NCBI RefSeq assembly: GCF_056712565.1
Contig: NZ_CM160072.1
Length of the DNA stretch: 64,000 nt
Reading direction: 5' to 3' (one strand)
Shown: piece after piece, positions 1,274 to 53,360 of the stretch
How positions within the stretch are numbered: position 1 is the stretch's first letter
Layout of the letters: the number at the start of each line of letters is the position of its first letter
Notes under the pieces: model-generated
The model's database searches: none
The model's input: only the letters and a program-made list of their open reading frames with translations
What the model was told of the DNA's origin: nothing
Made by a program: the position numbers and the translations under genes

Positions 1274-2323
1274 ATGAAGATCAAAGCTGTTGGTGCATAT
1301 TCCGCTAAACAACCGCTTGAACCGATGGATATCACCCGGCGTGAACCGGGACCGCATGATGTCAAAATTGAAATCGCTTACTGTGGCGTCTGCCATTCCG
1401 ATATCCACCAGGTCCGTTCCGAGTGGGCGGGGACGGTTTATCCCTGCGTGCCGGGCCATGAAATTGTAGGGCGCGTGGTAGCCGTTGGTGATCAGGTAGA
1501 AAAATATGCGCCGGGCGATCTGGTTGGTGTCGGCTGCATTGTCGACAGTTGTAAACATTGCGAAGAGTGTGAAGATGGGCTGGAAAACTACTGTGATCAC
1601 ATGACCGGAACCTATAACTCGCCGACACCGGATGAACCGGGCCATACTCTGGGCGGCTACTCACAACAGATCGTCGTTCATGAGCGATATGTTCTGCGTA
1701 TTCGTCACCCGCAAGAGCAGCTGGCGGCGGTGGCTCCTTTATTGTGTGCAGGAATCACCACGTACTCGCCGCTACGCCACTGGCTGGCCGGGCCGGGTAA
1801 AAAAGTGGGCGTGGTCGGCATCGGCGGTCTGGGACATATGGGGATTAAACTGGCCCACGCGATGGGGGCGCATGTGGTGGCATTTACCACTTCTGAGTCA
1901 AAACGCGAAGCGGCAAAAGCCCTGGGGGCCGATGAAGTTGTTAACTCACGCAATGCCGATGAGATGGTGGCTCATGTGAAGAGTTTCGATTTCATTTTGA
2001 ATACAGTAGCTGCGCCACATAATCTCGACGATTTTACCACCTTGCTGAAGCGCGATGGCACCATAACGCTGGTTGGTGCGCCTGCGACACCGCATAAATC
2101 GCCGGAAGTTTTCAACCTGATCATGAAACGCCGCGCGATAGCTGGTTCTATGATTGGCGGCATTCCAGAAACTCAGGAGATGCTCGATTTTTGCGCCGAA
2201 CATGGCATCGTGGCTGATATAGAGATGATTCGGGCCGATCAAATTAATGAAGCCTATGAGCGAATGCTGCGTGGTGATGTGAAATATCGTTTTGTTATCG
2301 ATAATCGCACACTAACAGACTGA
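1274..2323 (+). CDS. yahK: NADPH-dependent aldehyde reductase, Zn-dependent alcohol dehydrogenase family
   Basis: 349-aa ORF; GHEIVGRVVAVG zinc-ADH signature, structural-zinc Cys cluster CKHCEECEDGLENYC, Rossmann GVVGIGGLGHMG; RBS aggag 8 bp upstream. Confidence 0.85.
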   Translation: MKIKAVGAYSAKQPLEPMDITRREPGPHDVKIEIAYCGVCHSDIHQVRSEWAGTVYPCVPGHEIVGRVVAVGDQVEKYAPGDLVGVGCIVDSCKHCEECEDGLENYCDHMTGTYNSPTPDEPGHTLGGYSQQIVVHERYVLRIRHPQEQLAAVAPLLCAGITTYSPLRHWLAGPGKKVGVVGIGGLGHMGIKLAHAMGAHVVAFTTSESKREAAKALGADEVVNSRNADEMVAHVKSFDFILNTVAAPHNLDDFTTLLKRDGTITLVGAPATPHKSPEVFNLIMKRRAIAGSMIGGIPETQEMLDFCAEHGIVADIEMIRADQINEAYERMLRGDVKYRFVIDNRTLTD

Positions 2324-4400: not shown

Positions 4401-5987
4401 TCAGTTTTTCAGCCGCCGCCAGAAGGTCGTCCGGCTTATGCCTAAATAATTCGCCGCTGCTGTTTTATCGCCTTTAAATTTCTCCAGTGCCTGTTGTGGT
4501 GTCAGCAAGCGTGGAGCGGGAGTTTTCGCTGACTCGCGCGCCAGCTCCGGCAGTAGCAGCTGCAAAAATTGCGGCGTTAAATCCGGCGTCGGTTCCACAC
4601 TTAAAAACAGCGCCAGTCGCTCCATCATATTGCGCAGTTCACGAATATTGCCCGGCCAGTCGTAGTGCACCAGCACGGTTTCGCTTGCCTGTAATCCCTG
4701 GCGTAATGCGGCAGAAAACGGGGCGGAGAGCGCCGCCAGAGACACTTTCAAAAAGCTTTCCGCCAGCGGCAGAATATCCGTCACCCGCTCGCGCAGTGGT
4801 GGCAATTGCAGACGCAAAATACTCAGCCGATAAAACAGATCACGGCGAAACTGCCCTTGCCGCATATCTTCTTCCAGATTGCAGTGAGTGGCGCTAATGA
4901 CTCGCACATCCACCGGAACAGGCTGATGCCCGCCGACGCGGGTGACCTCTTTTTCTTCCAGCACCCGCAGCAGCCGAGTCTGCAACGGCAGCGGCATTTC
5001 GCCTATCTCGTCAAGAAACAGCGTGCCACCGTGGGCGATTTCGAACAGCCCGGCGCGACCTCCGCGTCGCGAGCCGGTGAACGCCCCTTCCTCATAGCCA
5101 AACAGCTCTGCTTCCAGCAACGATTCGGCAATCGCCCCGCAGTTGACGGCAACAAACGGATGCGACTTTTTGCCCTGTCGCGCATCGTGGCGGGCAAAAT
5201 ATTCCCGATGAATCGCCTGGGCCGCCAGCTCTTTGCCCGTCCCCGTTTCCCCCTCAATCAACACCGCTGCACTGGAGCGGGCATACAGCAAAATAGTCTG
5301 CCGCACCTGTTCCATCTGTGGTGATTGACCGAGCATATCGCCCAGCACGTAACGAGTACGCAGGGCGTTACGGGTGGCATCGTGAGTGTTATGGCGTAAC
5401 GACATGCGCGTCATATCCAGCGCATCGCTGAATGCCTGGCGCACGGTGGCGGCGGAATAGATAAAAATTCCGGTCATTCCGGCTTCTTCTGCCAGATCGG
5501 TAATCAGCCCCGCACCGACCACCGCTTCGGTGCCGTTAGCTTTTAGCTCGTTAATCTGCCCGCGTGCGTCTTCCTCGGTAATGTAGCTACGTTGATCGAG
5601 GCGCAAATTAAAGGTTTTTTGAAACGCCACCAGTGCCGGAATAGTTTCCTGATAAGTGACAACGCCGATAGAAGAGGTGAGTTTTCCGGCTTTTGCCAGT
5701 GCCTGTAACACATCGTAGCCGCTCGGTTTAATCAAAATAACTGGCACTGACAGGCGGCTTTTCAGATACGCGCCGTTAGAGCCAGCGGCAATGATGGCGT
5801 CACAGCGTTCGCTTGCCAGTTTCTTGCGGATGTAGGTCACCGCTTTTTCAAAGCCAAGCTGAATAGGGGTGATATTCGCCAGGTGATCAAACTCGAGACT
5901 GATATCGCGAAACAGCTCGAACAGGCGCGTTACCGATACCGTCCAGATAACCGGTTTGTCGTCATTAAGCCGTGGTGGATGTGCCAT
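4401..5987 (-). CDS. prpR: Sigma54-dependent transcriptional activator of the propionate operon
   Basis: Start taken at [10 protein letters not shown] (ORF track begins 4 codons earlier); AAA+ sigma54-interaction motifs GETGTGKE and GAFTGS, C-terminal HTH; divergent from prpB. Confidence 0.9.
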
Positions 5988-6030
5988 AGCGCACCGCAAA
6001 GTTAAGAAACCGAATATTGGGTTTAGCCTT

Positions 6031-6088
6031 GTTTCATAATTGTTGCAATGAAACGCGGTGAAACATTGCCTGAAACGTTAACTGAAAC
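6031..6088 (+). promoter_or_regulatory. Array of TGAAAC hexamers (one inverted, four direct at about 10-12 bp spacing); candidate PrpR enhancer
   Basis: gtttca at 6031 then tgaaac at 6049, 6059, 6071 and 6083, located 80-130 bp upstream of the sigma54 promoter. Confidence 0.35.
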
Positions 6089-6163
6089 GCATTTTTGCGG
6101 ATTACTTCATGACTTTATCTCTAACAAATTGAAATTAAACATTTAATTTTATTCAGTCAATTG

Positions 6164-6178
6164 TGGCACACCCCTTGC
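6164..6178 (+). promoter_or_regulatory. Sigma54 (-24/-12) promoter of prpBCDE
   Basis: TGGCAC-N5-TTGC (tggcacaccccttgc), 48 bp upstream of prpB ATG; fits the sigma54 consensus and PrpR being an enhancer-binding protein. Confidence 0.7.
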
Positions 6179-6225
6179 TTTGTCTTTATCAACGCAAATA
6201 ACAAGTTGATAACAAAGGATGGGCT

Positions 6226-7116
6226 ATGTCTCTACACTCTCCAGGTAAAGCGTTTCGCGCTGCACTGTCTAAAGAAAATCCATTGCAGATTGTTGGCACC
6301 ATTAACGCCAACCATGCGCTGTTGGCGCAGCGTGCCGGATATCAGGCAATTTATCTCTCCGGCGGTGGCGTGGCGGCAGGGTCGCTGGGGCTGCCCGATC
6401 TCGGTATTTCTACTCTTGATGACGTGCTGACAGATATTCGCCGTATCACCGACGTTTGTTCGCTGCCGCTGCTGGTGGATGCGGATATCGGTTTTGGTTC
6501 TTCTGCTTTTAACGTGGCGCGCACCGTGAAATCGATGATTAAAGCCGGTGCGGCAGGATTGCATATTGAAGATCAGGTTGGTGCGAAACGCTGCGGTCAT
6601 CGCCCGAACAAAGCGATCGTCTCGAAAGAGGAGATGGTGGATCGGATCCGCGCGGCGGTGGATGCGAAAACCGATCCTGATTTTGTGATCATGGCGCGCA
6701 CCGATGCGCTGGCGGTAGAGGGGCTGGACGCCGCGATCGAGCGTGCGCAGGCCTATGTTGAAGCGGGTGCCGAGATGTTGTTCCCGGAGGCGATTACCGA
6801 ACTCGCCATGTACCGCCAGTTTGCCGATGCGGTGCAGGTGCCGATCCTCGCTAACATTACCGAATTTGGTGCCACGCCGCTGTTTACTACCGATGAATTA
6901 CGCAGTGCCCATGTTGCAATGGCGCTGTACCCGCTTTCAGCGTTCCGTGCCATGAACCGCGCCGCTGAACATGTCTACAACGTCCTGCGTCAGGAAGGCA
7001 CGCAGAAAAGCGTCATCGACACCATGCAGACCCGCAACGAGCTGTACGAAAGCATCAACTACTACCAGTACGAAGAGAAGCTCGACGACCTGTTTGCCCG
7101 TAACCAGGCGAAATAA
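6226..7116 (+). CDS. prpB: 2-methylisocitrate lyase
   Basis: 296-aa ORF, isocitrate lyase/PEP mutase family; first gene of prp operon. Confidence 0.92.
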
Positions 7117-7160
7117 AACACAACGAAAAATATCTCGACCCTACAAATGACGAGGACAAC

Positions 7161-8330
7161 ATGAGCGACACAACGATCCTGCAAAACAGTACCCATGTCA
7201 TTAAACCGAAAAAATCGGTGGCGCTTTCTGGCGTTCCGGCGGGCAATACGGCGCTCTGCACCGTGGGTAAAAGTGGCAATGACTTGCATTACCGTGGCTA
7301 CGATATTCTTGATCTGGCGGCACATTGCGAATTTGAAGAAGTGGCGCATCTGCTGATCCACGGCAAACTGCCGACCCGTGACGAACTTGCCGCCTACAAA
7401 ACGAAACTGAAAGCCCTGCGCGGTTTACCGGCTAACGTGCGTACTGTGCTGGAAGCCTTACCAGCGGCGTCGCACCCGATGGATGTTATGCGCACCGGCG
7501 TTTCCGCGCTCGGCTGCACACTGCCGGAAAAAGAGGGGCACACTGTATCTGGTGCGCGGGATATTGCCGACAAACTGCTGGCGTCACTTAGCTCGATTCT
7601 TCTCTACTGGTATCACTACAGCCATAACGGCGAACGCATCCAGCCGGAAACTGATGACGACTCTATCGGCGGTCACTTCCTGCATCTGCTGCACGGCGAA
7701 AAGCCGTCGCCAAGCTGGGAAAAGGCGATGCATATCTCGCTGGTGCTGTACGCCGAACACGAGTTTAACGCTTCCACCTTTACCAGCCGGGTGATTGCGG
7801 GCACTGGCTCTGATATGTATTCCGCGATTATTGGCGCGATTGGCGCACTGCGCGGACCGAAACACGGCGGGGCGAATGAAGTGTCGCTGGAGATCCAGCA
7901 ACGCTACGAAACGCCGGACGAAGCCGAAGCAGATATCCGCAAGCGGGTGGAAAACAAAGAAGTGGTCATTGGTTTTGGGCATCCGGTTTATACCATCGCC
8001 GACCCGCGCCACCAGGTGATCAAACGCGTGGCAAAGCAGCTCTCGCAGGAAGGCGGCTCGCTGAAGATGTACAACATCGCCGATCGCCTGGAAACAGTGA
8101 TGTGGGAGAGCAAAAAGATGTTCCCCAATCTCGACTGGTTCTCCGCTGTTTCCTACAACATGATGGGTGTTCCCACCGAGATGTTCACACCACTGTTTGT
8201 TATCGCCCGCGTCACCGGCTGGGCGGCGCACATTATCGAACAACGTCAGGACAACAAAATTATCCGTCCTTCCGCCAATTATGTTGGACCGGAAGACCGC
8301 CAGTTTGTCGCGCTGGATAAGCGCCAGTAA
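7161..8330 (+). CDS. prpC: 2-methylcitrate synthase
   Basis: 389-aa ORF, citrate synthase family (GFGHPVY motif). Confidence 0.92.
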
Positions 8331-51393: not shown

Positions 51394-51678
51394 ATGCTTC
51401 AAAGTAATGAGTACTTTTCCGGCAAAGTGAAATCGATCGGCTTTTCCAGCAGCAGCACTGGTCGCGCCAGCGTGGGTGTTATGGTTGAAGGTGAATACAC
51501 CTTCAGCACCGCTGAGCCTGAAGAGATGACGGTAATCAGTGGCGCGCTGAATGTGTTACTGCCTGACGCGACCGACTGGCAAGTGTATGAAGCCGGTTCG
51601 GTGTTTAATGTTCCCGGTCACAGCGAGTTTCATCTGCAAGTTGCCGAACCCACCTCTTATCTGTGCCGCTATCTGTAA
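51394..51678 (+). CDS. ppnP: Pyrimidine/purine nucleoside phosphorylase (cupin, UPF0345)
   Basis: 94-aa [20 protein letters not shown]. Confidence 0.8.
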
Positions 51679-51684
51679 TTCCTC

Positions 51685-51715
51685 GCCTTCCCCTTGAACG
51701 GGAGGGCATTTTTCT
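51685..51715 (+). terminator. Terminator hairpin after ppnP
   Basis: gccttccc / cttgaac / gggagggc (one G-U pair) followed by atttttctg. Confidence 0.5.
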
Positions 51716-51885
51716 GAAATGTCCTCTCTTTAACCCATAATAATATTTCCTTTGCTGGGATTTTTTCGATTTCCGATATATTCATAATTCATCAAGGTTG
51801 ATATAAATATCAGCGAAGATCTCCAGATATTGTTGCGGAACTGGCGACGATAAAAGATAAATCAGATGATGAATGGTGGCGTGCA

Positions 51886-52167
51886 TTGCTGCAAAGTCGC
51901 AATGATCATTTGCGCCAAACGGCATTGCACAACGCACATACCCCGGTGTTGTTGTTAACGACATTGACTGAGCCTCAGGAGCGGTCGCTGGCTATTAATA
52001 ATTCACAGCTGGCTGCCGATGTGAAAACGGCGTGGTTAAAAGAGGAGCCATCATTACTCTTATTTGTCGAACAACCCGATCTTTCGCTGTTACGTGATTT
52101 AGTGAAAACCGGGGCAACGCGAAAAATTCGCAGTGAAGCGCGTCACCGGCTTGAGGAAAAACAATGA
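51886..52167 (+). CDS. Hypothetical protein or gene remnant (ykiA-like)
   Basis: Frame is open from 51802 but has no ATG before the TTG at 51886; leucine-rich 93-aa product; no recognisable RBS. Confidence 0.3.
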   Translation: MLQSRNDHLRQTALHNAHTPVLLLTTLTEPQERSLAINNSQLAADVKTAWLKEEPSLLLFVEQPDLSLLRDLVKTGATRKIRSEARHRLEEKQ

Positions 52168-52272
52168 CACAACGCCCCTGGAGCAAGTTACAGCATAAAA
52201 CGCATAATATTGCTGCGCTAAGAATTATTGCCCGCTGTAGCTAACGATTATATTCCTGGTGTGGCTTTGTAC

Positions 52273-52305
52273 GCCGGATAAGACGCGGCAGGCGTCGCAT
52301 CCGGC
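52273..52305. repeat. REP element downstream of rdgC
   Basis: gccggataagacgcggcaggcgtcgcatccggc. Confidence 0.7.
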
Positions 52306-52324
52306 ATTAAAGGTAAATCAGCAA

Positions 52325-53236
52325 TTAACGTTGTGCTTCGCCACCTAATCCTTCAATCAGGTTTTGAATTAACGCTGCCAGTTCACCAGTCATCAGGATG
52401 AAATCGGCATCAAAGCGCTGGGCGAAATCTTCACGGTCGATATCTTCGTTTTGATCGCGCAGCTCGTCGCAGAACTTCAGACGCTTGAGCGAACCATCGT
52501 CGCACATCACAAACTGAATGCGCTGCTGCCAGTCAAGCGCCAGTTTAGTCACCACTTTTCCGGCTTCAATGTGGTTGGTGATCTCTTCGCTGGTCAGATC
52601 TTGTTTCTTCGCGCGGATCACGCCGCCATCTTCCAGCAACGATTTCAGCTCGGCTTCATCAAGCAGCTGGAAGCCCTGTGCCGCGCTGCCGGAACGTACC
52701 CATTCGGTCAGCGTCAGTTCAATCGGGTTTTCCATGCTCAATGGTACAACCGGTAACGACCCCAGGCTTTTACGCAGCAGTGCCAGCGTATCTTCCGCTT
52801 TTTTGGCGCTGGCGCAGTCCACCATAATCAAACCGTTAACCGTGTCGATCCACATCATTGTCTGGCTAAAACGGCTGAAAGCACGCGGCAGCAGAGAGTG
52901 CAGCACTTCGTCTTTCAGCGAATCTTTTTCGGTTTTCTTCAGCTTACGCGCCTGTTCTGCTTCCAGTTTGGCGATTTTCGCTTCCAGCGCCTGTTTAATC
53001 ACCGGGGACGGGAGGATTTTTTCTTCTTTGCGCGCACAGATAACAATTTGACCATTGGCAACGTGCGTTAACGCATCGCTGTGCGATCCCATCGGAGGTA
53101 CCCAGCCCATCTTCGCCATGTCCTGGCTGCCGCATGGGGTAAATGCCATCGAGGCTAGCTGTTTTTCCATCTCTTCTGCACGCAGCGAAATCTCGCGGCT
53201 AAGACGGTAAACCATTAAATTTTTGAACCACAGCAT
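52325..53236 (-). CDS. rdgC: Recombination-associated protein RdgC
   Basis: Start at [12 protein letters not shown]; 303 aa; track ORF extended 24 codons. Confidence 0.9.
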
Positions 53237-53360
53237 GATAATTTCCACGGCCTTGTCGTTAAATTTAGCGGGCATGATAACGAATTGTCGGCGGCCTTGC
53301 ATTGCCAATCCGGTTGTCCGTCTCTACGCTATTGATATTGAAAAAAATAAGGAGAGTACC

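Follow-up and report, generated by a model that had tools for sequence, protein, structure and literature searches.

In the genome of Escherichia coli ATCC 11775, to which the analysed stretch of DNA (64,000 nucleotides of contig NZ_CM160072.1 in assembly GCF_056712565.1, hereafter the window) is 100% identical, the genes ppnP and rdgC converge on a 646-nt interval, which is likewise 100% identical to that of ATCC 11775. Of the complete E. coli genomes, 5426 in number, all but two (5424) contain sequence related to this interval. The features of the region are collected in Table 1. The original prediction had placed a 93-aa leucine-rich open reading frame (ORF) with a TTG start between the two genes, and this ORF was found as claimed, with leucine accounting for 20% of its residues (19/93). 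Translation of 51802..52167 gave 121 sense codons followed by TGA, and the frame was bounded on its 5′ side by a TGA at 51799–51801. The further claim, that the frame stays open for 28 codons upstream of the TTG without an ATG or a clear ribosome-binding site, was confirmed by this translation and by a scan of the sequence. No in-frame ATG occurred anywhere in the 121-codon frame, and neither ATG nor GTG was present 5′ of codon 49. The only near-cognate in-frame codons 5′ of the TTG were ATT at 51829, CTG at 51841 and ATA at 51850, and no good Shine–Dalgarno sequence preceded any of these three or the TTG at 51886. On the opposite strand, the ORF of rdgC runs mechanically beyond its annotated start to a TTG at 53308 (52325..53308, 327 aa); translation probably does not include these 24 additional codons.

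Table 1. Features in and around the ppnP–rdgC interval of the window.
Feature	Position	Strand	Remarks
ppnP	51394..51678	+	Upstream neighbour
Retained 5′ intergenic/promoter region of the ancestral gene	51679..51820	+	Ends 1 nt before the lost ATG
Terminator-like hairpin and T run	51685..51707	+	Just after ppnP; consensus scan, pattern match only
Sigma-70-like promoter match	51714..51741	+	CTGAAA-16-CATAAT; scan
Antisense ORF, 60 aa	51782..51964		From the ORF list; taken as a mechanical by-product
Second CATAAT	51783–51788	+	Read from the sequence
Eight codons YKYQRRSP	51802..51825	+	Not homologous to the ancestral protein (O157 alignment, both registers)
Deletion junction 1	51815..51825	+	GAAGAT, then 5-nt filler CTCCA
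ykiA pseudogene	51826..52167	+	Codons 647–759 and stop of the ancestral 759-aa DUF2773 protein
93-aa ORF, TTG start	51886..52167	+	From the ORF list; inside the ykiA pseudogene
Antisense ORF, 63 aa	51995..52186		From the ORF list; taken as a mechanical by-product
GAGGA Shine–Dalgarno sequence	52153..52157	+	6 nt before the ATG of the 26-aa ORF; read from the sequence
26-aa ORF (ykiD orthologue; WP_122083095.1)	52164..52244	+	PGAP coding sequence; ATG overlaps the ykiA stop (ATGA)
Deletion junction 2	52186..52194	+	9-nt microhomology AGTTACAGC
REP-type palindromic element	52272..52319	.	Separates ykiD from the rdgC 3′ end (convergent)
rdgC	52325..53236	-	Downstream neighbour; 303 aa as annotated

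The gene to which this frame belongs is already known, as it is recorded as a pseudogene in both curated and automatic annotation. In the MG1655 reference (NC_000913.3), ykiA (b0392) is marked as a pseudogene and is followed by ykiD (b4732), and PGAP labels 51826..52167 as a DUF2773 domain-containing protein, “incomplete; missing N-terminus”. The K-12 MG1655 locus is orthologous to that of the window, with 95.8% DNA identity, and shares with it junction 1, the 342-nt length of the pseudogene and the neighbouring genes ppnP, ykiD and rdgC. The window differs from K-12 by five amino acids within 113 codons. In addition, it carries CAGCGA where K-12 has CAGTGA, an in-frame TGA (CAG TGA AGA). Consequently, the frame is open four codons further upstream in the window than in K-12, to 51802, and this upstream extension is not conserved.

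The extended frame matched the Pfam model PF10971 (DUF2773) with an E-value of 1.5e-42 and a score of 144 bits (gathering score, 25 bits). Positions 1–81 of the 81-position model aligned to residues 41–121 of the frame (window 51922..52164). No LRV or HEAT model matched the 121-aa frame at E ≤ 10, and searches of NCBIfam with the remnant and with the full-length protein described below returned noise only. Rfam, searched at a permissive threshold over 51500..52500, gave only sub-threshold REP/naRNA4 matches and a chance anti-hemB match, with no RNA family in the frame. The REP-derived family naRNA4 scored 27.8 and 20.4 bits on the two strands of 52272..52319 (gathering score, 59.5 bits), and these nucleotides contain a palindrome (GCCGGATAAG...CATCCGGC; GCCGGATAAGACGCGGCAGGCGTCGCATCCGGC), which we take to be a REP element.

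The absence of an ATG and of a ribosome-binding site, the modest length and the TTG start are all features that an ORF arising by chance in an intergenic spacer, with no coding history, would be expected to show. Such an origin was refuted by the DUF2773 match, together with an alignment in which the frame shared 95% DNA identity with the 3′ portion of a 2280-nt gene that E. coli O157 carries intact at this locus, and we give it practically no chance of being correct.

A search for a full-length homologue had been proposed with the original prediction, and such homologues exist at the same locus in O157:H7, in GCA_018578905 and in Escherichia sp. E4930. In O157:H7, the 2280-nt gene between ppnP and rdgC encodes a 759-aa DUF2773 protein (WP_120795310.1) and is overlapped (ATGA) by a 149-aa SF0329-family gene. 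A divergent E. coli lineage (GCA_018578905) carries a full-length protein with 90% identity between ppnP and rdgC, and a 149–151-aa SF0329-family gene follows the 759-aa gene in both E. coli lineages. Escherichia sp. E4930 has a full-length 759-aa gene, with 73% identity, in the same slot. The ppnP of E4930 differs from that of E. coli at a pS (synonymous differences per synonymous site) of 0.43–0.46, a species-level distance. This places E4930 in a separate species, and hence the full-length state is ancestral.

Relative to the O157:H7 gene, nucleotides 51826..52167 of the window are 95% identical to nucleotides 1939–2280. The encoded tail is 88% identical to residues 647–759 of the protein, with 13 non-synonymous differences in 113 codons, and both sequences carry the complete Pfam DUF2773 segment. 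The start codon of the O157:H7 gene has no counterpart in the window, nor do the putative signal peptide, the beta-helix domain and approximately 460 residues of an alpha-solenoid. The intact architecture of the family is thus absent, as only codons 647–759 are present and 85% of the protein is missing.

The boundaries of the loss could be read at base level. On the left-hand side of junction 1, the segment 51679..51820 shares 94% identity with the 142-nt spacer that separates the ppnP stop from the ATG of the 759-aa gene in O157. Downstream, 51826..52194 aligns to O157 from codon 647 to just beyond the stop. A deletion of approximately 1.94 kb has therefore taken the start codon and codons 1–646. 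The GAAGAT at the junction corresponds to the native 5′-UTR and resembles GAGGAT, which makes up codons 644–645. The first eight codons of the open frame appear from this alignment to be 5′-UTR and junction filler, read in frame by chance. Junction 1 was identical in all eight of the diverse remnant alleles that were aligned, which points to a single event, and it was also present in the allele of E. coli MS 145-7 and in Escherichia sp. MOD1-EC7003. The syntenic homologues and the base-level junctions support the proposal that the frame is the 3′ remnant of a longer gene whose 5′ part was lost. In our view, the frame is very probably what is left of a dead gene, namely the pseudogene ykiA, and we infer that it makes no functional protein.

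The nature of the lost protein was approached through an AlphaFold model of the full-length sequence, built with a 41-sequence alignment (pLDDT 91, pTM 0.80). The model has a hydrophobic N-terminal helix (residues 2–16), a beta-helix-like domain at residues ~68–176 and then an alpha-solenoid that extends up to residue 758. The N-terminal helix, with its NACA/TE motif, is a putative Sec signal peptide. Residues 646–758 form paired helices that are continuous with the solenoid, and the remnant in the window would accordingly represent the last few helical repeats of the modelled ancestral alpha-solenoid. The helical part of the ancestral protein is similar to LRV/HEAT solenoids (1LRV; PF01816, PF25591, PF02985). 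The family profile matched PDB entry 1LRV at E 7e-13, over profile positions 330–435, which lie outside the tail kept in the window. LRV, LRV_2 or HEAT models were matched by 6–10 of the 41 relatives, whereas the O157 protein itself fell below the Pfam thresholds for both LRV and HEAT. A Foldseek comparison of the full-length model with the PDB retrieved HEAT/ARM solenoids only, with TM values of 0.12–0.30; these matches look like generic solenoid similarity and offer no functional lead. No PADLOC defence model matched the full-length protein or SF0329, and a PDB sequence search with SF0329 gave nothing below E 0.1. A literature search by title returned nothing relevant on DUF2773 or bacterial SF0329, and no member of the DUF2773 family is known to have a tested function.

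An exhaustive HMMER search recovered 169 relatives, many of them of 750–800 aa at 25–35% identity; the ~760-aa DUF2773 proteins constitute a real family. The 81 positions of the DUF2773 model correspond to the C-terminal tail only (residues 679–759 of the O157 protein), and the model was matched by only six of the 41 full-length relatives. This suggests that the Pfam entry was seeded from pseudogene remnants such as ykiA. DUF2773 appears to cover no more than the tail that survives of a much larger family, which is uncharacterised and made up of exported proteins with a beta-helix and an alpha-solenoid. A further homologue of 746 aa, 49% identical to the O157 protein, was observed on a Logan contig of SRR28530750 (6001..8241), which appears to come from another enterobacterium. 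It is located between sprT-like and MFS sugar-transporter (galP-like) genes, and the family is therefore not tied to the ppnP–rdgC slot.

The second gene of the locus has also been shortened. In the 26-aa ORF, the first 10 and the last ~16 residues correspond to the two termini of SF0329 as found in O157 and MOD1-EC7003, and approximately 363 nt of SF0329 are gone, in frame, at junction 2. At this position O157 has AGTTACAGC on the left and AGTTACGGC on the right. The K-12 protein YkiD (b4732) likewise consists of SF0329 residues 1–10 joined to residues 135–151. The products of ATCC 11775 and K-12 differ in length (26 versus 27 aa) and at four of 26 aligned positions. The SF0329 models PF25753 and NF049912 did not match the 26-aa product. 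Its 26 residues are too few for these models to score, and its descent was read from the DNA alignment across junction 2. With 124 internal residues missing, the 26-aa ORF is not a functional SF0329 member. By this alignment, YkiD is not a small gene that arose de novo, but an in-frame fusion remnant of an SF0329-family gene. YkiD of K-12 (27 aa) has been detected via epitope tagging (PMC6001520), and its composition as a fused SF0329 remnant calls for caution in the reading of “validated” small proteins.

Two other alleles bear on the order of events. A junction-1 scan of species-representative genomes identified MOD1-EC7003, which carries the remnant together with an intact 151-aa SF0329 gene (5476..6280 of its locus). 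This allele represents the intermediate state, having undergone deletion 1 alone. The E. coli MS 145-7 allele (1600..1700 of its locus) contains junction 1 and a further deletion that extends from just after “GCGGAACTG” to the SF0329 ATG. Only the first five of the 113 remnant codons are left in this allele, and SF0329 is frameshifted. Taken together, these two alleles indicate that deletion 1 came first and that it was followed either by the loss of most of SF0329, as in the allele of the window, or by the loss of the ykiA remnant. Among the 5426 complete E. coli genomes, 4500 (~83%) carry a remnant allele of the window type and 444, mostly O157:H7-like, have kept 80% or more of the intact locus. 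Most of the other ~480 belong to the MS 145-7 type, as estimated from evenly spaced rows.

As a whole, the data support the following course of decay. Between ppnP and rdgC, the ancestor of E. coli had two genes that formed a unit. One encoded a 759-aa protein, presumably exported, in which a Sec-type signal peptide and an N-terminal beta-helix preceded a long alpha-solenoid of the LRV/HEAT-like kind; the other, translationally overlapped (ATGA), encoded an SF0329-family protein of 149–151 aa. One illegitimate deletion of ~1.94 kb then fused the 5′-UTR, at a point 1 nt upstream of the ATG, with codon 647. The start codon was lost, together with the parts that encoded the signal peptide, the beta-helix and most of the solenoid, and the native promoter survived along with the final 113 codons and their stop. 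No functional start appears to have been recreated; that the frame is open today reflects only its coding past and the fact that no stop has arisen in it yet. Later, SF0329 was cut down in one lineage to the 26–27-aa YkiD by an in-frame deletion at the 9-nt microhomology, which gave the allele of the window, and another lineage lost the ykiA remnant itself. The finding matters little beyond annotation quality; the locus offers a clean, datable case of stepwise gene decay, from an intact pair through a 5′ deletion to partner collapse or remnant loss.

Selection on the remnant was examined by pooling pN/pS over all pairs of nine sequences, consisting of the eight remnant alleles and the matching O157 codons. 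The 1-nt insertion column of one allele was removed before codon analysis, and out-of-frame controls were added. In the true frame, pS was 0.061 and pN 0.0365 (pN/pS 0.60), and the two out-of-frame controls gave pS values of 0.045 and 0.037 and pN values of 0.042 and 0.042 (pN/pS 0.93 and 1.14). In the same strains, the ratio was 0.023 for ppnP (pS 0.044, pN 0.0010) and 0.040 for rdgC (pS 0.053, pN 0.0021), so that the pN of the remnant is 17–36 times that of the flanking genes. Three pairwise comparisons of intact alleles yielded pN/pS values of 0.21–0.24 for the whole gene (pS 0.215–0.618, pN 0.045–0.148) and 0.27–0.41 for the last 113 codons (pS 0.238–0.557, pN 0.063–0.220). Variant codons among the eight remnant alleles comprised 14 synonymous and 26 non-synonymous changes. 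These counts are compatible with neutrality (P 0.10–0.39, depending on the assumed transition bias), and they reject an omega of 0.22 (P 1e-3 to 2e-5) and one of 0.03 (P < 1e-18). Selection on the remnant is therefore relaxed relative to the intact orthologues and the flanking genes, and its pattern is indistinguishable from drift in the eight alleles compared base by base, out of ~4500 remnant alleles. The value of 0.60, below 1, could reflect weak residual constraint, polymorphism that predates the deletion or recombination with intact alleles.

Within its homologous part, the frame contains no stop or frameshift in the eight remnant alleles. This says little, since a frame with ~40 neutral substitutions stays free of stops with a probability of 0.10–0.15. 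Three alleles share a 3-nt deletion inside a TTGTTGTTG run. Slippage in such a run is in frame by construction, and the deletion is thus no evidence of frame conservation.

These results also bear on whether the remnant has been kept as a new cytoplasmic protein of ~93–112 aa with LRV-like repeats, initiated at the TTG at 51886 or at the near-cognate ATT at 51829. The intact frame of the eight alleles and the lower pN/pS of the true frame relative to the out-of-frame controls agree with such a protein. A native Shine–Dalgarno-like GAAGA is retained 9 nt before the in-frame ATT, the promoter is retained and is regulated in K-12 by BglJ–RcsB (PMC3950696), and the ORF directly downstream, ykiD, is translated in K-12 (PMC6001520). 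However, no ATG or GTG lies near the 5′ end and no Shine–Dalgarno sequence precedes the TTG, one allele has 1 nt inserted close to the junction, which puts any start upstream of it, including the ATT at 51829, out of frame, and the signal peptide with which the protein would leave the cytoplasm is gone. Furthermore, the substitutions fit neutrality and reject even the moderate constraint of the intact alleles, pN far exceeds that of the flanking genes, and several hundred genomes do without the remnant. We therefore regard a retained new protein as very unlikely. The same evidence speaks against the conserved short protein from the TTG that had been named as the alternative to the original prediction: the substitutions behave as neutral, the constraint of the intact alleles is rejected, and some genomes have deleted the remnant itself. 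Slightly less credible still is a version in which the ykiA tail is translated at a low level from a non-ATG codon, under the inherited envelope-stress/BglJ–RcsB promoter, yielding a signal-less, cytoplasmic mini-solenoid of ~93–112 aa with a new role, alone or with the co-transcribed YkiD peptide. If true, what a deletion left behind would have been reborn as a gene, and this gene would be fixed in ~83% of the complete E. coli genomes.

The literature found on ykiA consists of transcription and promoter data only. According to PMC3950696, the ykiA promoter of K-12 is one of ten activated by the BglJ–RcsB heteromer, its transcription start is mapped by 5′-RACE, and the BglJ–RcsB site is centred 79 nt upstream of that start. 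We carried this result over to the window on the basis of the 95.8% DNA identity. Here, TTTTCTGA at 51710–51717 fits the BglJ–RcsB core wwTTCykA given in PMC3950696, and it would lie ~79 nt before the start expected from the CATAAT at 51783–51788, our presumptive -10 element. The terminator-like hairpin that follows ppnP has an 8-bp stem with six GC pairs and the tail ATTTTTCT. Since the promoter region coincides with the retained upstream 142 nt, the ykiA promoter is the orphaned promoter of the lost gene, and its biology would be better studied in strains with the full gene, such as O157:H7.

The retained promoter probably still drives transcription of the remnant, as a leader of ykiD, and the remnant may matter as RNA, namely as a ~370-nt 5′ leader of a BglJ–RcsB-controlled ykiA–ykiD transcript that feeds ribosomes or stability to ykiD. 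The start of ykiD and the stop of ykiA overlap in an ATGA, the ykiD start is preceded by a GAGGA Shine–Dalgarno sequence of its own, YkiD is detectably made in K-12 (PMC6001520), and on the + strand the scan returned nothing promoter-like from the ykiA promoter region to ykiD. On the other hand, YkiD is itself a deletion remnant of SF0329, variable among strains in sequence and length, which makes a selected role doubtful, and the region contained no Rfam family or conspicuous structure. Although it is the least improbable of the alternatives considered here, a function as leader seems unlikely to us; it is also compatible with ykiA being a pseudogene.

Additional rearrangements were observed at this slot apart from those that produced the allele of the window. 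Escherichia sp. E4930 has lost SF0329 independently, and the right-hand breakpoint of this loss, GTTACGGCG, is nearly that of the E. coli deletion (6270..6430 of its locus), as would be expected of a site prone to deletion. The ppnP–rdgC slot occurs in at least five allelic states, with repeated independent deletions. In GCA_018578905, which carries the allele with 90% identity, rdgC (6810..7721 of its locus) differs from that of other E. coli at a pS of 0.16–0.18, whereas ppnP of the same genome differs at a pS of only 0.03–0.05. Such a contrast suggests that a boundary of recombination lies inside the locus or close to it.
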